Positions 2,226 to 59,185 of a stretch of 64,000 nucleotides of DNA are shown piece after piece. The position numbers were made by a program, and so were the translations under genes. The stretch's first letter is position 1, and the number at the start of each line of letters is the position of its first letter. Below the pieces are notes generated by a model. It worked only from the letters and a program-made list of their open reading frames with translations, was not told the origin of the DNA and did not search any database. The DNA comes from a bacterium (GTDB lineage Bacteria > Patescibacteriota > Minisyncoccia > Phycocordibacterales > JAKAEA01): NCBI GenBank assembly GCA_021818465.1, contig JAKAEA010000001.1, positions 454,045-518,044 on the forward strand, in the 5' to 3' direction.

Positions 2226-2273
2226 AAAATTAGTCAAAAAAAATGCATTTGAAAATTATCCACAGCCTATCTC

Positions 2274-2302
2274 TTGCCTAGTGAACGAGCGTTCACTATA
2301 CT
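2274..2302 (+). promoter_or_regulatory. Promoter (TTGCCT-17-TATACT) with an embedded LexA/Cheo-type SOS box TAGTGAACGAGCGTTCACTA (2279-2298)
   Basis: Perfect 8-nt inverted arms around GAAC-N4-GTTC lie inside the promoter spacer, directly upstream of the small ORF and lexA. Confidence 0.6.
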
Positions 2303-2308
2303 GTAAAT

Positions 2309-2530
2309 GTGTCGTTAAAAATATTAGCAATAAAAAATATTATGCAACAAAAAATTATTGAGAATAGAATCGCTGCTATAAACCGTGTCATAGACCACAA
2401 AATCCTACGCGGTCTTGATTACAGTGATGAAGCTCGTCGTCACAAAATGCTCCGCACTCAAATCAGAAAAGTTCGCCGCCAACGACCGCACATGCTAGGA
2501 ACATTTATACGTTTTGCTTCTTTTTTGTAA
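2309..2530 (+). CDS. Small hypothetical protein co-transcribed with lexA (GTG 2309, or ATG 2342 giving 62 aa)
   Basis: Basic 62-73-aa ORF between the LexA box and lexA. Its start sits about 7 nt downstream of the -10, so the transcript would be leaderless. Confidence 0.4.
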   Translation: MSLKILAIKNIMQQKIIENRIAAINRVIDHKILRGLDYSDEARRHKMLRTQIRKVRRQRPHMLGTFIRFASFL

Positions 2531-2540
2531 TTATCACGCC

Positions 2541-3128
2541 ATGAATGCATATACAGAAAAGCTCATTACGTTTTATAGAAGTCACAAACGAATGCCGACG
2601 TACGCTGAACTAGCAACACTCTGGAGTTTTAAATCAAAAAACGCGGTTTTTCGTGTAGTAGGAAAGATGGTTGCGGCTGGTATTGTTGCAAAAGATCATC
2701 TGGGTCGTCTCGTACCTACAAGCACCTTTCAGGAGACTCCTGTACTAGGTTTAGTAAAAGCTGGTTTACCCTCAGCTATTGATGGCGTAGAGACATACGG
2801 CATTGACGAAAGCGAGATGATTAGTTTTGATGAATTTTTAATAAAAGATAGAGCCAAAACATATATTTTAGAAGTTGATGGTGATTCAATGATAGACGCA
2901 CACATTGCCAAAGGCGATTTAGTGATTGTTGAACGTGCTGAAAAAGCCCGTGATGGCGACATTGTTATTGCTGAAGTTGATGGTGAATGGACAATGAAAT
3001 ATTTTCGTGAACAAAAGCATGATACAGGCCCCTGGCTCGAAGCCGCTAACAAAAACTACGCCCCGATTTATCCGGAGCATAGTCTTCGCATTGCCGCAAT
3101 TGTGCGTGGTGTCGTGCGAAAATATTAA
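2541..3128 (+). CDS. lexA: LexA repressor (S24 peptidase)
   Basis: N-terminal winged HTH and C-terminal S24 domain with the catalytic Ser (GDSM) and Lys. ATG at 2541. Confidence 0.85.
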   Translation: MNAYTEKLITFYRSHKRMPTYAELATLWSFKSKNAVFRVVGKMVAAGIVAKDHLGRLVPTSTFQETPVLGLVKAGLPSAIDGVETYGIDESEMISFDEFLIKDRAKTYILEVDGDSMIDAHIAKGDLVIVERAEKARDGDIVIAEVDGEWTMKYFREQKHDTGPWLEAANKNYAPIYPEHSLRIAAIVRGVVRKY

Positions 3129-3568
3129 CGCGTAGCAGAAATTGAAGTTTGAAGTTCAGGAGTTTGTGCTGCTACTGTGATACGACCATTGGCATCTTGT
3201 GATATTTCGTAACCAGTTTTATATATGCCACCCGCAGGATCGTAGGGAGTACCACCCGAAGGATCAATTGGTAACTCCGACAAATACTCTGGAACCAAGC
3301 AGCTACGAATATCAGCCGCACCGTTATTGATGGGTGTTGGAGTAGTTGTTAGAGTGTACGCGCAATTAAAAGCACCATTATTATCAACCATATTTTGATC
3401 AACGGCATCCAAGATAGACACTACTGCCGCCTTACGTTCTGAATCACGAGCTTGCGCAAATTGTTTTGCAGGATTCACTGCTACCAGTACTACTGCAGCC
3501 AAAATGCCGATAATACCAATGACCACCAACAATTCTATTAATGTGAAGCCTTGTTGAGGAGACCTCAT
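3125..3568 (-). CDS. Type IV pilin (prepilin; leader MRSPQQG, then FTLIELLVVIGIIGILAA)
   Basis: Class III signal with G-1, F+1 and E+5. ATG at 3568 (reverse-complement CAT at 3566-3568). Confidence 0.75.
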   Translation of the reverse strand: MRSPQQGFTLIELLVVIGIIGILAAVVLVAVNPAKQFAQARDSERKAAVVSILDAVDQNMVDNNGAFNCAYTLTTTPTPINNGAADIRSCLVPEYLSELPIDPSGGTPYDPAGGIYKTGYEISQDANGRITVAAQTPELQTSISATR

Positions 3569-3727
3569 CCTCTGTACTATACTTTTTTGTATTTGCATAA
3601 AATAATGCATTATTAATAATCTAGAAGTAAACCAATATGGCATTAAAATTCTCGTCAATATTTTTTAAAAATTTGTTAAAATTCTGCACCGCTCACTATT
3701 GATAATCATCTGTCAACATTCTCCGAG

Positions 3728-4042
3728 CTATGGCACGCAACTGGTAGCAACAATTCTTAGAGCACTGTTGCCTACATCTAATGTATAAAAAGGTAAATCT
3801 ACTAAGGAATTGTGTTGTGGTGAATATAAAGGATCGGCTGTTTGAGTTAGTTGTTGCACGGCTTGACACGAAAACATTTCTGTATCTGAAAGAACATAGT
3901 TTTTTGCCTCTAAAAATTGATCACGCAACGCAGCCAACCGCTGGACACGAATAAAAAGTACAATACTAAAAATCGCACCAAGAAACATTACCCCCATAAG
4001 CGCCATGAATCCTTTTTGATAATTTTTAATTTGGTGTCGCAT
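3728..4042 (-). CDS. Pseudopilin-like minor pilin (leader MRHQIKNYQKG, then FMALMGVMFLG; lacks E+5)
   Basis: Prepilin-type N-terminus followed by a hydrophobic helix. Overlaps the next gene by 17 nt. Confidence 0.5.
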   Translation of the reverse strand: MRHQIKNYQKGFMALMGVMFLGAIFSIVLFIRVQRLAALRDQFLEAKNYVLSDTEMFSCQAVQQLTQTADPLYSPQHNSLVDLPFYTLDVGNSALRIVATSCVP

Positions 4043-4424
4043 GATAGTATTCAAAAAATATCGGCGTACGCGAATCGCCATAAGAAAATGAAAAACGTAG
4101 GTGATGTATTGTTGTTGTAGTAGCAATCGCACCGATACCACGTCCTGACGAGGTGCTGTCCACGCTGGTTTGCGGATTCGATATGGTATGCCATACGGCA
4201 GTATCAAGAATATTTTTTGCCGAAAGGTACGTGGGCGATGCGTATACCTCATCACTTATTTTTTCCGCCACAAACAGTGATTCTTCTTGTTCACGCGCAC
4301 GCTGCTCGAAAGCTATATTAGATCGAGATACTAGTAACCAAACACTGGTCACACTAACTAGTAAAATGGAGAATAGACCAATGTATACACTTAATTCCAC
4401 AAATGTAAATCCTCGACAATACAT
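4026..4424 (-). CDS. Pseudopilin (leader MYCRG, then FTFVELSVYIGLF)
   Basis: Prepilin peptidase motif with E+5. Confidence 0.55.
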   Translation of the reverse strand: MYCRGFTFVELSVYIGLFSILLVSVTSVWLLVSRSNIAFEQRAREQEESLFVAEKISDEVYASPTYLSAKNILDTAVWHTISNPQTSVDSTSSGRGIGAIATTTTIHHLRFSFSYGDSRTPIFFEYYHATPN

Positions 4425-4434
4425 AGTTAAAAAA

Positions 4435-5841
4435 TTACTGAGGTGACGTACACAAAAACAGAGCGGGTGAATTACCATTCGTCACGTTATATATAATGTT
4501 ATTTTCATAGTCTAACCCTACAGTAGGTATTGAAGTGACAAGCTGTGGTCTACTAAAAAAATTTTGCGTTGTAGTTGCTGCATCGGTAGTAAGAGAAAAT
4601 ATACCTGCGTTAGTAGCAACGAGTAGGTGATGAGCAATGGCCCGAATATCATTTACTTGAGCGGCAAGCGAACTCGACGCAATAATAGTGGGGGCACGAG
4701 GGTTAGCAACGTTAAGCGCCACTAATTCAGGGTGACTTGGCGTGCTACCTTTACGTCGACCAGCATAGAGTATAGAACCGAGTAAAAATACTCGATTAGT
4801 ATATTCCGCACCAGTAAACGTCACGCTGGCAACTTTTATCGGATGCACAGGATCGTGCACATCAACAACAATAATATTGCTCGTGTTTCCGGAAGCTGCT
4901 AGATATGCATAGCCCCGAGATACAGCTATGTCGTAAATATTGTGATTTAACCACACCGAACCAAGCCAGCGAGGATTAGTAGGTATCGTTACATCAAAAA
5001 TATGAAATTCGCTTCCTGCCGTCCGATGTGTACCGACATATACTCGACCAGCGTAATAACGAACACTCAAACCTGAAGGATACGAGCCGCTAACACCAGG
5101 TAAAGAACGAGTCGCCACAATACTCGGATGTGTTACATCGTGCACATCAATCACCTGTAATTGACTTGTTGAACCAGTTACTGCCAAATACGCATATCCA
5201 TCCGCCACATCTACACTAGTAACTGGCGGCACTGTTACTCGCCCAATAATTGGGTGCGTGGTATTTTTTGGATCAGCAATAAGAAAATTAAATCCGTCAG
5301 TTGACGATGCGCCAAGATAAGCTTTACCTTCAAAAAAATCAAAGTTGGTTATGAATGCATTTGGAGTGGATGTGCCAAGGTAGATAGGAACGGGAGAAGT
5401 AACGCTCAGCGGGAGAGCGACACTATGAGGATTCATGAAACCCCCGCAGTCATTGCCAAGGGCAATGCTTGCCAATTGATCGGTATACAATGCCGCAATA
5501 ATAAGTGGTCGTACAAAATTCGGATAGGTAGAGCTGGCTGTTACTAGTGCTTCTTTCATGCACGGTTCTACGCTTTCTACTATAGATTGTGTGGTAATTT
5601 CTCTTTCAATATCTGTACTATACTGCGGCATATCGTAGGCCATAGTTTTTTCCAAGGCTGCCCGAGCAACATAGAGCATGCGACCATACACCACAAGTCG
5701 TTCCAAACTTTTTTGTTGCAAATCAAGCGTCGGAATGACAATGCTTGTTATTAGACTACATACGACAATTGCGATAACGATCTCAACCAACACCGCGCCA
5801 CGATGGGTAGTGCAATTAGTATTGTAATTCACCATTTTCAT
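4435..5841 (-). CDS. Large prepilin-type protein with a C-terminal LVIVD-repeat (beta-propeller) domain
   Basis: N-terminus ...THRG, then AVLVEIVIAIVV (G-1, E+5). Downstream are repeated ~40-aa units of the form YAYLA..G....L.V.DV.D...P. Confidence 0.65.
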   Translation of the reverse strand: MKMVNYNTNCTTHRGAVLVEIVIAIVVCSLITSIVIPTLDLQQKSLERLVVYGRMLYVARAALEKTMAYDMPQYSTDIEREITTQSIVESVEPCMKEALVTASSTYPNFVRPLIIAALYTDQLASIALGNDCGGFMNPHSVALPLSVTSPVPIYLGTSTPNAFITNFDFFEGKAYLGASSTDGFNFLIADPKNTTHPIIGRVTVPPVTSVDVADGYAYLAVTGSTSQLQVIDVHDVTHPSIVATRSLPGVSGSYPSGLSVRYYAGRVYVGTHRTAGSEFHIFDVTIPTNPRWLGSVWLNHNIYDIAVSRGYAYLAASGNTSNIIVVDVHDPVHPIKVASVTFTGAEYTNRVFLLGSILYAGRRKGSTPSHPELVALNVANPRAPTIIASSSLAAQVNDIRAIAHHLLVATNAGIFSLTTDAATTTQNFFSRPQLVTSIPTVGLDYENNIIYNVTNGNSPALFLCTSPQ

Positions 5842-6109
5842 AGAGAGTGATCGTTTCCGTAAAAGAACCGATAGAAAAATGTAGAGTGCGTGTTGACGTG
5901 CTCATTGTAGGTGACCGATCTCGTATTAACGCATCGAGCGTTGATTCTCGCTGCGCAAATGCAAGCCATTGATTATATTGATGGAGCGATAATCCAATTC
6001 CCATAGCAACAATCATTGTAAACACAACCATCACCACAATGATTTCTATAAGCGTAAATCCTTTTGTGCGAACATTAATGAATAGCGCTGACTGTTTGCG
6101 AGAGGGCAT
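5816..6109 (-). CDS. Pseudopilin (GspH/FimT-like; leader ...RTKG, then FTLIEIIVVMVV)
   Basis: Prepilin motif with E+5. 97 aa. Confidence 0.6.
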   Translation of the reverse strand: MPSRKQSALFINVRTKGFTLIEIIVVMVVFTMIVAMGIGLSLHQYNQWLAFAQRESTLDALIRDRSPTMSTSTRTLHFSIGSFTETITLYENGELQY

Positions 6110-7166
6110 AAATGGGAAGAATCATTGCGAGAGCAATAAAACCTATAGCACACCCAAGGAGTACCATTAACACTGGTTCGAGCAAACTTGACCATTTTTT
6201 TACCAATTCCTCATATTCACCCTGGAAGTATTCGGATAGGAAAGCGAGCGTTTCAGCGAGCGATCCGCTTGCCTCTGCTGCAGAAACAAGCTGAACCATT
6301 GTCTCAGGAAAGAGATGCGCGTGTGTGGCCAAGGCCTGAGAAACCGTAGTGCCTGATTCAACAGTACTACCGATATGATCCAGAGCTTGTGCGTATACAA
6401 CATTATTAGGATGTGATCGACGTAAACCAACCACTAACGGTATACCACTTGAAACTAAAACGGCCATCGTACCAGTAAAAACACTCAATATTTGTCCCTT
6501 AATTAACGTGTTCACAAATGGCATAGTCAACAATAATCTATCTCGCACACGCGTCGTGAATGTACGAGTAAAAGTATATTTACTGATAAAAATTACACTA
6601 AGAAAAACACTAACGAGAAACACTATGCCCCAAAACCAATGCCTGGCTATTGTGTCAGATACAAATATCAATACTCTGGTTGGAAAGGGTAACGTGGTAT
6701 GCATACTTTCTAAAAGTGGCCTAATTTTAGGAAAAATTCCAAACGTCATACCACCAGTTAACACTACCGATAACAACGCAATAGAAATAGGGTAGGTGAG
6801 AGCCGCCATAGTTTTTTTACGAAGTACATCTTTTTTGACTAGTGTTTGACCACAACGCTCCAACGCTTGCCGTATAGTGCCAGATTCTTCACCAGCTTCG
6901 ATAACGGTTATAAGACCGGGAGGTAACACTATTCGTTTTTGTATAGACTGCCAAAGTGGACAACCTGAGGCCAAATCTTCTTTAACCAGATCCAGAAAAA
7001 TCTTTCTGGGATTCGTACGCGGTACACGAGCAGCACAAAGCGAGATACATTCGTCTATTGTCGCGCCAGACTTTAGAAAAAAACCGAGTTGCTTAAAGAC
7101 AATTATTTGATCCCGTAGTCGTAATCTTATTCTTTTTTTTACCAAATTTTTTTTAAACAAAAGCAT
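6075..7166 (-). CDS. pilC: Type IV pilus assembly platform protein PilC / GspF family
   Basis: Two T2SSF repeats, polytopic. Located between pilB and the pilin genes. Confidence 0.85.
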   Translation of the reverse strand: MLLFKKNLVKKRIRLRLRDQIIVFKQLGFFLKSGATIDECISLCAARVPRTNPRKIFLDLVKEDLASGCPLWQSIQKRIVLPPGLITVIEAGEESGTIRQALERCGQTLVKKDVLRKKTMAALTYPISIALLSVVLTGGMTFGIFPKIRPLLESMHTTLPFPTRVLIFVSDTIARHWFWGIVFLVSVFLSVIFISKYTFTRTFTTRVRDRLLLTMPFVNTLIKGQILSVFTGTMAVLVSSGIPLVVGLRRSHPNNVVYAQALDHIGSTVESGTTVSQALATHAHLFPETMVQLVSAAEASGSLAETLAFLSEYFQGEYEELVKKWSSLLEPVLMVLLGCAIGFIALAMILPIYALSQTVSAIH

Positions 7167-7181
7167 AGTATACGTAGCTTT

Positions 7182-8282
7182 TTATAAAGCACTCAATACT
7201 TCGGCCATATCAACGAGTCCATGTTCTGTTTTTGTCATGCCATCTATCATAAGATTTCGCACGCCTGCACGCTCAGTAATTGTTCTCAGACGAGACAATG
7301 ATGGTTCATTCGTAATAGCTTCACGCAACGCATCAGTTACTGTAATTAGTTCGTATATCGCAATGCGCCCTTGAAAACCGGTATATTTGCACGCCAAACA
7401 ACCGCTCAACACGCGACAGTGCTGACATTTTTTACGAACTAATCGCTGAGCAATAATAGTTTCCACGGTTGCCGCAATAAGATACGGGGCAATGCCCATA
7501 TCAAGAAGACGGATGATTACCGAGATCGCATCATTCGTGTGTACTGTAGAAAAAAGCAAGTGACCAGTTAAAGCGGCGTGAATAGCTATATGCGCTGTTT
7601 CGGCATCACGTATTTCACCAACCATAATAACATCAGGATCTTGACGTAAAACAGAACGTAAACCAGAAGCAAAAGTTAAACCATGATCGGCATCAACCTG
7701 AATTTGTCTCGCGCGTGGCAACATGTACTCAACCGGATCTTCAATCGTGACAATTAATCGGTCGGGTGCAATGAGTTTCAATAAACTATACAGCGTTGTT
7801 GTTTTACCGGAACCAGTCGGACCAGTAACCAAAACCATGCCACGCTTACGACTAACAACAGTCGCCAAATATGAAGCGTCAGCCGTGCTGATACCTAACG
7901 ATTCTAGTTGAGAAAAATCTGGTTTATCTTTTAAAATACGCAATACGACTGCTTCACCGTAATATGTTGGCATCACTGAGACACGAATGTCAGCATGATG
8001 ATGAGGCCTAGTTACACGACCATCTTGTGGTAAATGGTGTAAATCCGTCCGTAGCCTAGCCAATATCTTAATTCGACCAATAAGACCAGCATGGAGCGTT
8101 TTCGGTAGACGACGATGCACCGACAACAAACCGTCTATCCTAAAACGAACGAATACATCACTTTCAAATGGATCAATATGAACATCGGATACGCCAACAC
8201 GGTCAGCTTCTTGTAGGATATTTTCCACAAGCACCGGCAGGTCAACGTTTTCTCCGGTTCCTATTGTATCCATTACTACCAA
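7182..8282 (-). CDS. pilB: Type IV pilus assembly / type II secretion ATPase (PilB/GspE family, short form)
   Basis: Walker A GPTGSGKTTT, Asp/His boxes, and a C-terminal tetracysteine (CQHC...CLAC). Confidence 0.85.
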   Translation of the reverse strand: MVVMDTIGTGENVDLPVLVENILQEADRVGVSDVHIDPFESDVFVRFRIDGLLSVHRRLPKTLHAGLIGRIKILARLRTDLHHLPQDGRVTRPHHHADIRVSVMPTYYGEAVVLRILKDKPDFSQLESLGISTADASYLATVVSRKRGMVLVTGPTGSGKTTTLYSLLKLIAPDRLIVTIEDPVEYMLPRARQIQVDADHGLTFASGLRSVLRQDPDVIMVGEIRDAETAHIAIHAALTGHLLFSTVHTNDAISVIIRLLDMGIAPYLIAATVETIIAQRLVRKKCQHCRVLSGCLACKYTGFQGRIAIYELITVTDALREAITNEPSLSRLRTITERAGVRNLMIDGMTKTEHGLVDMAEVLSAL

Positions 8283-23768: not shown

Positions 23769-25349
23769 ATGGCTACAGCCACAACAACACTACGAGATAG
23801 GGCAGGGGGCATCACGGCAGCCGGCGGTACTCTGAAGTGGATTATTCTTCTCACGGTTATCATTGGCACATTTCTTGGTCGTCTTGATCAGACCATTGTT
23901 AATCTGGCCCTACCTAAAATCATTAGCGACTTTCATATTACCGTCAGCGCTTCAAGCTGGATTGCTACGGCATATATCATCGCCAACGCTATTTTCGTGC
24001 CAATTTGGGGCAAATTAGGCGATACAACAGGTCGAAAACGCGTGTACCTTTGGGGATTTGGTATTTTTATCGCTGGCTCCATACTTGCCGCTCTTTCTTG
24101 GAACCTTAGTTCTTTAATCGTATTTCGTATCATTCAAGCCGTTGCGAGTTCGGCGGATTATCCAACGGCAATGGCTATTCTTGTTTTTACATTTCCTGAA
24201 AATAGAGAGCGGGCACAAGCCTTGGGTATTTGGTCGGCATCATTTGCTGCCGCTTCAGTTTTTGGGCCGCTTATTGGTGGCCCGCTCATTGACGCATTCG
24301 GTTGGCGTTCGGTTTTTTGGGTAAACGTGCCAGTCGGTATTGTTGGTGTGGTAATGGCTTGGAGTTTTATTCACGAATCACATTCGATACGCCGACGTGT
24401 TGTTAAATTTGATTGGTGGGGAGCAACTATTCTCGGCATAGCTGTAGCCACACTTTCACTTGTCCTTGATCAAGGACAAAGTTGGGGATGGCTTTCGGCC
24501 GCAAGTAACGCGTGCTACGCAGTCACCCTACTAGCGCTTCTTATTTTTATTGCTATTGAATATGATCATCCTGAACCACTCGTTGATTTGAAATTTTTCA
24601 AAAATAATCTTTTTGTGAGTGTGCTACTTAATAACATTATTATTTTTATGGCTCTTATGGGTGGTATTTTCCTTGTTCCTATTTTTGCCCAAACATTTCT
24701 TGGTTACAGTGCCACCCAGGCTGGATATTTGTTTATCCCGATGGCATTCATGTTTGTTATTTCCGCACCACTGGGCGGCTCCCTTGTTGGTAGAGTAGAA
24801 ATGCGATGGGTGATTATGGTAAGCACATTTGTTGGTAGTATTGGAATATTTCTCCTCGCCGGCATTGATCCACGCTCAACAGCGTGGGATATTATTTGGC
24901 CACTTATGATAATGGCATTCGGAATGGGATTTGGTATGGCCCAACGAACCAACGCTATTGCAGTAGCCGTACCACCCGAAGAAATTGGTATGGCTTCTTC
25001 TATTTTAATGCTCGGTCGCAATATTGCTGGCGCTTTTGGTATCTCTGTATTTGCCACACTTCTTAATAATTTTATCAACAGCAATGTGTTAACGTTTGCA
25101 AAATTTAGCCATCTGAATCTTAACAATATTGGCAATCAACTTTCCAACGTCTTGCCAACAACTACTATTGCCACACCCGCCAACGCTCACGCTACTTTTA
25201 TTCAACTCATTATTCTTAAAGCTGAAGTATCTGGCTATGGTGATGTGTTCTTTTGGGCAGCAATTGTTATGTGTACTGGTGCCGTGCTCGCATATTGGAT
25301 TAAAGGTGGCAAACTCGACAAAAATAAAAAAGTTCATGTAGAAGGGTAG
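23769..25349 (+). CDS. MFS transporter, DHA2 (EmrB/QacA) family, 14 TMS
   Basis: DHA2 signature (LDQTIVNLALP..., GKLGDTTGRKR), about 14 hydrophobic segments, 526 aa. Confidence 0.85.
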   Translation: MATATTTLRDRAGGITAAGGTLKWIILLTVIIGTFLGRLDQTIVNLALPKIISDFHITVSASSWIATAYIIANAIFVPIWGKLGDTTGRKRVYLWGFGIFIAGSILAALSWNLSSLIVFRIIQAVASSADYPTAMAILVFTFPENRERAQALGIWSASFAAASVFGPLIGGPLIDAFGWRSVFWVNVPVGIVGVVMAWSFIHESHSIRRRVVKFDWWGATILGIAVATLSLVLDQGQSWGWLSAASNACYAVTLLALLIFIAIEYDHPEPLVDLKFFKNNLFVSVLLNNIIIFMALMGGIFLVPIFAQTFLGYSATQAGYLFIPMAFMFVISAPLGGSLVGRVEMRWVIMVSTFVGSIGIFLLAGIDPRSTAWDIIWPLMIMAFGMGFGMAQRTNAIAVAVPPEEIGMASSILMLGRNIAGAFGISVFATLLNNFINSNVLTFAKFSHLNLNNIGNQLSNVLPTTTIATPANAHATFIQLIILKAEVSGYGDVFFWAAIVMCTGAVLAYWIKGGKLDKNKKVHVEG

Positions 25350-58122: not shown

Positions 58123-59185
58123 CGTCGTTTTTAATAAGCACATCAGCAAAACGTGGCAAATCTTCCAAAACAACACCGGTGCCACGAGCAACGGCGGTCA
58201 ATGGATCATCGGCAACAATTACAGGAATTTTAAGGTGCTCATGAAGCAAATCAGCTAGACCTCCGAACAGTGCGCCGCCACCGGCGAGGTGCACACCGCG
58301 ATGCATAACATCAGCAATAATTTCCGGCGGTGTAGTTTCTAAAGCTTCCTTAGCCGCTTCAACGAGTGTTGCGACTGATTGACGCGTGGCTTCGCGAATA
58401 TCCGCATCAGTTACTACCACCTCGCGCGGCAAACCAGTTACCAAATCACGACCACGAATCACGGCTTCCGGCGACGGAGCCGACTCAGCGGTGTGAGCAA
58501 CTGATTCTAGTTCGGTCACCGAGCCAATAGCTACTTTAATATATTCCGCAGTCTTTTCGCCGACAAGAATTTTAAATTCATTACGAATGTAATTGATAAT
58601 GTCGTTATTGAGACGATCACCAGCAATTTTAAGATTTTTTGAAACCACAATACCACCAAGCGATATAATAGCGATATCAGTAGTACCGCCACCAATGTCT
58701 ATAATCATATTACCGACTGGTTCTAAAACCGGTAAACGAATACCGATAGCCGCGGCCATTGGTTCTTCTATTATATGCACGTCGCGAGCGCCGGCGGATA
58801 TTGTAGCATCACGAACCGCGCGCGTTTCTACGTTCGTGATACCTGCTGGCACACCAACAACCACACGCGGTCCAAAAAATTTCTTTGTATCATGTTGCGC
58901 TCGATTCAAAAGGTAACGCATCATTTCCTCAGTGACTTCAAAATCAGAAATAACACCGTCAACAATTGGCTTGACGGCAGTAATGTGTTGCGGTGTCCGA
59001 CCAAGCATATTTTTTGCTTGTGTGCCCACAGCCACTACCGTACCTGTTTTTTGATTAACAGCTACCACCGATGGTTCATTCACAACAATACCTTTTCCAC
59101 GCACATATACTAGAGTGTTAGCTGTTCCCAGATCGATACCAATATCGTTGGAAAGCATAGAGCGAATGTTACGACGAAGAGGCAT
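58097..59185 (-). CDS. mreB: Rod shape-determining protein MreB
   Basis: MPLRRNIRSMLSNDIGIDLGTANTLVYV... Actin-like ATPase. Confidence 0.9.
   Translation of the reverse strand: MPLRRNIRSMLSNDIGIDLGTANTLVYVRGKGIVVNEPSVVAVNQKTGTVVAVGTQAKNMLGRTPQHITAVKPIVDGVISDFEVTEEMMRYLLNRAQHDTKKFFGPRVVVGVPAGITNVETRAVRDATISAGARDVHIIEEPMAAAIGIRLPVLEPVGNMIIDIGGGTTDIAIISLGGIVVSKNLKIAGDRLNNDIINYIRNEFKILVGEKTAEYIKVAIGSVTELESVAHTAESAPSPEAVIRGRDLVTGLPREVVVTDADIREATRQSVATLVEAAKEALETTPPEIIADVMHRGVHLAGGGALFGGLADLLHEHLKIPVIVADDPLTAVARGTGVVLEDLPRFADVLIKNDDALPSAKL

Follow-up and report, generated by a model that had tools for sequence, protein, structure and literature searches.

Organization of the locus

The window, by which we mean the whole 64-kb stretch of DNA that was analysed, carries near its start a promoter, a small gene and lexA, in that order and on the same strand (Table 1). 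The -35 and -10 hexamers form a TTGCCT-17-TATACT promoter, and the spacer between them is occupied by a palindrome with a GAAC-N4-GTTC core at positions 2283-2294. Two of the start codons require comment. The internal ATG of the small open reading frame is at 2342 (not 2343), which gives a protein of 62 residues, and an identical 62-residue protein has been called in the NCBI assembly GCA_027341405.1 (contig DAIEME010000001.1). The mechanical list of open reading frames had a TTG at 2514 as the start of lexA; homologues and gene callers place it at the ATG at 2541.

We interpret this arrangement as the autoregulated lexA operon of a Paceibacteria-like member of the Patescibacteria (CPR), in which the small gene is real, and we would put the probability of that reading at roughly 70%. 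The figure excludes the function of the small protein.

Table 1. Features of the promoter, small gene and lexA, with positions numbered from the first nucleotide of the window.
Feature	Position	Strand	Basis or remark
-35 hexamer, TTGCCT	2274..2279	+	Sequence reading and promoter scan (TTGCCT-17-TATACT)
Putative LexA operator (SOS box), TAGTGAAC-GAGC-GTTCACTA	2279..2298	none	Palindrome, matrix score, conservation
-10 hexamer, TATACT	2297..2302	+	Sequence reading and promoter scan
GTG at predicted transcription start	2309..2311	+	6 nt past the -10; in frame, not conserved
Predicted A/T-rich 5' leader, no Shine-Dalgarno	2309..2341	+	Sequence reading
Small gene, 62 aa from ATG	2342..2530	+	Gene calls, homologues, conservation, AF2
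Intercistronic gap, 10 nt	2531..2540	+	No Shine-Dalgarno, no terminator found
lexA, 195 aa, ATG start	2541..3128	+	Pfam, TIGR00498, 3k2z alignment, orthologues
LexA predicted cleavage site, A74-G75	2760-2765	+	Alignment to T. maritima LexA
LexA predicted catalytic S116	2886-2888	+	Alignment to T. maritima LexA
LexA predicted catalytic K153	2997-2999	+	Alignment to T. maritima LexA

The operator and promoter

The 20 bp of the palindrome comprise perfect 8-bp arms around a core GTGAAC-N4-GTTCAC. The number of bare 12-mers of the form GAAC-N4-GTTC is by itself unremarkable: the window contains three, against 0.74 expected, and at least three were present in four of 100 shuffled sequences. The other two copies, at 24101 and 38102, are both intragenic. 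Scored with a matrix derived from 64 orthologous sites, the operator reaches 28.8 bits; the next site in the window scores 2.7 and the best site among 100 shuffles 21.5. The 64 kb hold no second copy of the 20-bp site at three or fewer mismatches.

We regard conservation across loci as the decisive sequence evidence that the putative operator is more than a product of chance. Our comparison set consisted of 80 lexA loci, each from a different GTDB species. An exact GAAC-N4-GTTC is found 5' of lexA in 64 of them, flanked in every case by a -35 resembling TTGAC and a -10 resembling TATACT, and at that position most of the remaining 16 have either a box with one mismatch or the variant GTAC-N4-GTAC. 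The -35 of the relatives reads TTGAC[ATG] or TTGC.. and keeps an equal distance from the operator, while TATACT follows 2-3 nt past the box in 46 of the 64 loci. GAAC-N4-GTTC has also been published as the motif that LexA recognizes in Firmicutes and Actinobacteria (PMC4951493). The initial annotation placed a LexA-type operator in the spacer of the promoter; the elements are as it read them, and the 64 orthologous lexA promoters that share the box support the assignment.

The palindrome could also pair as an 8-bp stem, 54 nt past the stop codon of the upstream VTT/DedA-type gene, and so might be an RNA hairpin, the terminator of that gene or the site of some other regulator. We find this scarcely credible. 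There is no T-run 3' of the palindrome, a terminator scan was negative there, and the arms are kept without compensatory changes although the upstream genes vary among loci. Over the 64 lexA promoters the arms GTGAAC/GTTCAC are essentially invariant and the two central bases of the spacer are variable, a combination that is typical of a site recognized by a protein and not of an RNA hairpin. In addition, the palindrome always accompanies lexA and matches the LexA motif (PMC4951493). The terminator scan and the pattern of arm conservation led us to reject a terminator or RNA hairpin as the identity of the palindrome.

The initial annotation looked to further GAAC-N4-GTTC boxes as the means of defining a regulon, an expectation that the window disappoints, with no second site of the full type in its 64 kb. 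A matrix scan of the same 64 kb likewise returned no further LexA boxes, and motifs for recA, uvrA and uvrB are absent from the window. A single additional TGAAC-N4-GTTCA was found in 487 kb of flanking DNA.

LexA

The 195-residue product of the second gene appears, from its sequence, to be a divergent but convincing LexA. Residues 67-186 match Peptidase_S24 (Pfam PF00717; 6.3e-23, 81 bits against a cut-off of 23.3 bits), and the LexA model TIGR00498 aligns over residues 15-194 with 88.2 bits, a score below the NCBIfam equivalog cut-off of 110.95. A model of the UmuD subfamily scores similarly to TIGR00498 but covers the S24 domain only. The structure of T. maritima LexA (3k2z) could be aligned to residues 18-194 (E 1e-13), and the residues that correspond to its cleavage site and catalytic dyad, Ala74, Gly75, Ser116 and Lys153, are each at least 85% conserved among 61 orthologues. 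Pfam LexA_DNA_bind gave no match at E<=0.1; the TIGR00498 and 3k2z alignments both reach into the N-terminal part, where a winged-helix DNA-binding region would be expected.

The lexA genes of Firmicutes and Actinobacteria, such as those of B. subtilis and M. tuberculosis, offer the closest points of comparison. They share with the present locus a GAAC-N4-GTTC repeat that overlaps the lexA promoter, and their product is likewise an S24 repressor with an Ala-Gly cleavage site and a Ser/Lys dyad. The extended arms differ, being GTGAAC/GTTCAC here and CGAAC/GTTCG in those phyla. Here, moreover, the whole of the -35/-10 spacer is taken up by the operator, lexA is placed second in a bicistron, and the host is represented by a Patescibacteria MAG.

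Conservation of the gene order

The distance between box and lexA varies among the 80 loci. In 26 the box lies directly 5' of lexA, as a rule between -27 and -67, and in 38 it is more than 200 nt 5' of the gene (-211 to -428). All of the distal-box loci except L042, together with the window and two metagenome contigs, make up a set of 40 small-gene loci, and in each of these an open reading frame for 61-73 residues, with a shared core motif, lies between the box and lexA. Most of the small genes end less than 50 nt before lexA, with extremes of 3 and 83 nt, and two overlap it. A second open reading frame is inserted in L039, where the gap to lexA is 167 nt.

In L042 the same slot holds a different small open reading frame, the product of which is hydrophobic.

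Starting from the small protein, we found a Peptidase_S24 gene to be next in every context that was read, with variable genes on either flank. The initial annotation had promoter, small gene and lexA as a single transcription unit; such a unit is predicted here too, and its order is conserved across the small-gene loci.

The small gene and its protein family

A search with the window protein as single sequence retrieved only three relatives. The family was recovered by a profile search seeded with the open reading frames gathered from the lexA loci, which returned 356 clusters at 90% identity, all of them unnamed or labelled 'hypothetical protein'. An exhaustive HMM search produced 349 clusters at 50% identity, and the best 150 of these 349 are all stand-alone proteins of 42-108 residues. 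The sequences come from Patescibacteria/CPR MAGs labelled Paceibacterota, Nomurabacteria, Parcubacteria and similar.

The family consensus is M-S-x-x-Q-x5-E-x-E-I-x2-L-N-x2-I-D-x-K-I-L-R-G-x2-Y-x2-E-A-R-R-H-K-x-L-L, within which Asn14, Ile17, Ile21, Gly24, Tyr27 and His34 are invariant in an alignment of 34 sequences. Comparison of the window with L004 gives 15 synonymous and 11 non-synonymous changes in the small gene, and comparison of L024 with L033 gives 19 and six, respectively. This excess of synonymous changes, well above the expectation for neutral drift, shows that the gene is under purifying selection.

The initial annotation turned to homology for the identity of the small protein, and here the outcome was mixed. 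There is a conserved family of about 350 clusters but no named relative, Pfam, NCBIfam, PHROGs and PDB sequences being without a match. The best PDB hit to the family profile, the influenza HA2 coiled coil (E 0.37), is due to chance. Kinship with YnzC/DUF896, which is encoded in a B. subtilis SOS operon, or with DUF465 was considered and rejected: none of 34 family members matches at E<=10 and the PDB profile search was unsupportive.

AlphaFold models the window protein as a two-helix hairpin, with helices at residues 2-23 and 28-47 (pLDDT 84), and a canonical member of the family in the same way, with helices at 3-27 and 32-57 (pLDDT 87). The C-terminal tail is of low confidence in the models; its sequence is basic and then aromatic or hydrophobic. 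Structure searches with the models yielded generic hairpins only. The proteins are strongly basic, with a pI of 10-11.8 and a net charge of +4 to +13, the window member having a pI of about 11.8. No transmembrane segment is predicted anywhere in the family (the maximum Kyte-Doolittle mean over 19 residues is <=0.71), and neither a signal peptide nor a LysM domain was found. The description of a small basic product predicted to be co-regulated with LexA is upheld by the conservation of the family and by the retention of both the operator-bearing promoter and the linkage to lexA.

Might the open reading frame serve only to couple or tune the translation of lexA, as a leader that is translated into a functionless peptide? 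The short gaps and overlaps with lexA, the lack of a Shine-Dalgarno sequence before lexA and the displacement of an ancestrally leaderless lexA (see below) are compatible with such a device. Six residues that are invariant and several more that nearly are, over some 350 clusters, a stable length, the synonymous excess and the confidently predicted fold are not what a functionless peptide would be expected to display, and we judge this explanation very improbable.

The start of translation

According to the initial annotation, the GTG at 2309 coincides with the start of transcription, so that the message would be leaderless and would encode a protein of 73 residues. The GTG does open a 73-codon frame (2309..2530), and its spacing from the -10 is one that recurs in this promoter family: where the small gene is missing, the ATG of lexA lies 6-8 nt past the -10 in 24 of 26 loci. 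Moreover, the window genome looks rich in leaderless genes without a Shine-Dalgarno sequence. A motif of the latter kind accompanies only three of the 44 large open reading frames in the window, and a -10-like hexamer is found 5-9 nt upstream of 14 of 54 ORF starts, compared with 6.3% of other ATGs.

Despite this, initiation at the GTG has only a slight chance of being correct. An in-frame start 6-8 nt past the -10 is present in one of the 40 small-gene loci, that of the window genome alone; the remaining 39 have a conserved ATG behind an A/T-rich leader of 17-98 nt. Gene callers use the ATG, and all of the database homologues begin at or near it. Where the window has the GTG, no start codon is seen in L004, L001 or L002, which are its closest relatives; in L002 a stop codon in frame separates the promoter from the ATG of the small gene. 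The 11 residues that would be added are unconserved and overshoot the N-terminus of the family by seven. Leaderless initiation also usually prefers AUG. We therefore depart from the initial annotation on this point and place the start at the conserved ATG, behind a predicted leader (2309..2341) in which Rfam has no family match; the GTG could conceivably act as an additional start in this one genome.

The idea of a leaderless message does hold for the promoter family, in that the spacing of the lexA ATG from the -10 predicts a leaderless lexA mRNA in the relatives that lack the small gene. The simplest history suggested by the sequences is that leaderless lexA is ancestral and that the small gene was gained later, in one clade, between the promoter and the lexA start.

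Proposed mechanism

We propose that the promoter is of the sigma-70 type and that a LexA dimer bound to the operator in its spacer would occlude RNA polymerase. The transcript would encode the 62-residue protein first, from the ATG at 2342, which follows some 33 nt of leader lacking a Shine-Dalgarno sequence, and then lexA, 10 nt past the stop codon. Following DNA damage, RecA would be activated and LexA would cleave itself at Ala74-Gly75 with the participation of Ser116 and Lys153. The promoter would then open, the small protein and LexA would be produced, and the fresh LexA would shut the promoter again. Since an autoregulated promoter would never be fully off, and since lexA lies directly behind the small gene without a Shine-Dalgarno sequence of its own, the small protein is expected always to be made together with LexA.

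Possible functions of the small protein

We tentatively favour a role for the small protein in the action of LexA, either as a co-repressor or by modulating the cleavage or the turn-off of LexA, over a role as a checkpoint effector. The expected constant co-production of the two proteins is in keeping with this, and there are hints of it in LexA itself. In the small-gene clade the repressor has its own conserved Glu65, Asp113, His121 and Trp165 near the cleavage and active sites, His121 replacing a glycine that is 91% conserved elsewhere, and its median pI is lower, at 7.4 as opposed to 9.1. These residues and the shift in pI may be a matter of plain phylogeny. Charge co-variation between the small protein and LexA gave no signal (rho -0.09).

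Small proteins are known to target repressors of the LexA type, examples being gp7 of phage GIL01 (PMC4551915) and DdrR of Acinetobacter, which acts with UmuDAb (PMC7273328). As here, each is genetically tied to an S24 repressor, and together they provide a precedent for co-repression or for inhibition of cleavage. They differ from the present case in that the gene for gp7 belongs to a phage and that for DdrR is transcribed divergently, and neither has detectable similarity to our protein in sequence or fold; comparison with gp7 and with solved structures was negative at both levels. A more specific version of the LexA-partner reading has the hairpin protein, made in a fixed ratio with LexA, docking on the clade-specific acidic and aromatic residues Glu65, Asp113, His121 and Trp165 and thereby tuning DNA binding or self-cleavage. 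We consider it possible but rather unlikely in that detail. If it were true, the SOS switch of a large clade of Patescibacteria would be a two-protein repressor, the chromosomal counterpart of phage gp7.

The alternative of an SOS checkpoint effector draws on the neighbourhood of lexA in other bacteria. YneA, SosA, ChiZ and DivS are SOS division inhibitors of Gram-positive bacteria encoded adjacent to lexA, and Pseudomonas has a lexA-sulA operon. The genes for the former are divergent from lexA and sulA is downstream of it, and the products either span the membrane or bind FtsZ. Our small gene resembles them in being small, lineage-specific, next to lexA and under predicted LexA control. It is distinguished from them by being co-directional with lexA and upstream of it in the same transcript, and by a basic product that is predicted to be soluble and lacks any transmembrane segment, signal peptide or LysM domain of the sort seen in YneA, ChiZ and SosA. 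The division inhibitor or mutagenesis accessory that the initial annotation gave as examples of an SOS effector are guesses, and among known SOS effectors none was found to resemble the protein.

Such an effector might block division or replication after induction, possibly at the membrane by way of its basic and aromatic tail. The tail motif [KR][SN]FF[SN][KR][FL]F occurs at a fixed offset in 139 of 252 members, compared with 1.9 in shuffled tails. The tail of MinD, KGFLKRLF, is similar to it. It closely resembles the helix by which B. subtilis Noc binds the membrane, K2-H-S4-F5-S-R7-F8-F9 (PMC4331003). In both cases the likeness is confined to a short motif, which here is C-terminal, is weak in the window protein and is possibly packed intramolecularly: AF2 extends helix 2 through the motif, at low confidence, so that it may pack on helix 1. 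The tail of the window protein, HMLGTFIRFASFL, fits the motif poorly. The hydrophobic small open reading frame that occupies the slot in L042 would suit a checkpoint role. An inhibitor that is toxic sits uneasily with the continuous basal synthesis implied by co-transcription with an autoregulated lexA. On balance we place a checkpoint effector close behind the LexA-partner reading, each of the two being somewhat unlikely to be correct.

The charge of the family and its simple helical hairpin would also be in keeping with a general nucleic-acid-binding stress protein, acting on the nucleoid, RNA or the ribosome, which merely shares the transcript of lexA. A general role of this kind leaves unexplained the strict linkage to lexA in every context that was read, and the family resembles no known nucleoid or ribosomal protein. 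We regard it as quite unlikely, and retain the LexA-partner reading as the one tentatively preferred.

Significance

Autoregulation of lexA through a GAAC-N4-GTTC box is textbook knowledge and on its own adds little. What appears to be undescribed is the bicistron of the small gene and lexA, with its unnamed protein family. Sanchez-Osuna, Barbe and Erill reportedly described a LexA motif and regulon of Patescibacteria, by comparative genomics and EMSA, in Environ Microbiol in 2017. A literature search, the scope of which did not extend to that 2017 study of the Patescibacteria SOS response (19:3465, PMID 28618189), returned no paper that ties LexA to Parcubacteria or Paceibacteria.

We are left with a conserved family, about 350 clusters strong at 50% identity, and the sole property known of it is its place between an SOS promoter and lexA. 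Its hosts form a major group of uncultured bacteria with reduced genomes, and the loci present a clear evolutionary series from a leaderless lexA to the bicistron of small gene and lexA. Should the small protein prove to be a partner of LexA, or else the missing checkpoint effector, it would offer a first handle on damage signalling in Patescibacteria, in the form of a compact and testable module that consists of a 62-residue protein, LexA and a 20-bp operator.

Start sites and the position of the small gene

Among the relatives that lack the small gene, in which the LexA box lies directly upstream of lexA, an in-frame lexA ATG occurs 6-8 nt past the -10 hexamer in 24 of 26 cases, which predicts leaderless lexA transcripts in those relatives. 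The promoters concerned are those of L041, L043-L047, L049, L052-L055, L058-L065, L067, L069, L072, L076, L079 and L080 (L-numbers denote the 80 lexA loci, one per GTDB species). The small gene (2342-2530, plus strand) looks like an insertion that separates a leaderless promoter from lexA.

Shine-Dalgarno (SD) motifs are scarce in this genome, and leaderless genes look common in it, because -10-like hexamers lie near ORF starts. In the window a TAnnnT hexamer ends 5-9 nt upstream of 14 of 54 ORF starts, compared with 6.3% of other ATGs, and Shine-Dalgarno sequences are nearly absent, with similar motifs preceding only three of 44 large ORFs.

About ten of the 40 leaders that run from the promoter to the conserved ATG of the small gene carry a short GTCG, often AGGTCGAT, 7-13 nt past the -10 hexamer. 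Its recurrence may simply reflect shared descent.

Three single genomes differ in the slot before lexA. In L042 it is filled by a different ORF, one that contains a hydrophobic stretch (1350-1560); L068 lacks an ORF there and has instead a 180-nt leader that includes a long inverted repeat (2820-3000); and L039 has an additional 52-aa ORF downstream of the small gene (2835-2995).

Neighbouring genes

A minus-strand run of pilin-like genes (3125-8282) is convergent with lexA and overlaps its stop by 4 nt; the run resembles a gene cluster for a type IV pilus. Elsewhere on the minus strand the actin-fold motif DIGGGTTD occurs in two ORFs, near 58699 and 63789, which may be MreB/FtsA-like paralogues.

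Features in the window and in related leaders
Feature	Position	Strand	Basis
N-terminal methylation motif	within 3125-8282	minus	Pfam N_methyl
Several ORFs with pilin-like hydrophobic N-termini	within 3125-8282	minus	
PilC-like membrane protein	within 3125-8282	minus	
ATPase with GPTGSGKTT	7823	minus	sequence motif
GTCG leader motif	window 2311-2314; leaders of L006, L007, L011, L013-L016, L039, L066		
Example starts, -10-like hexamer/SD-poor context	21601, 35069	plus	
Example starts, -10-like hexamer/SD-poor context	35049, 54700, 47281	minus	

Operator and LexA variation

In L051, L056, L057, L062, L070, L073, L074 and L083, all MAGs labelled Actinomycetes or Thermoleophilia, the usual GTGAAC-N4-GTTCAC is replaced by GCGTAC-N4-GTACGC (GTAC-N4-GTAC). 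This sequence sits where the usual one does, flanked by TTGACA and TATACT about 55-65 nt before lexA, and is an apparent operator variant inside this LexA family.

LexA of the small-gene clade (window gene 2541-3128) has conserved residues of its own, namely Glu65, Asp113, His121, Ala123 and Trp165. Position 121, in the SMxDxGI motif, is glycine in 91% of the other proteins, and the median pI is 7.4 in the clade against 9.1 in the others. These clade-specific properties may represent co-adaptation or plain phylogeny.
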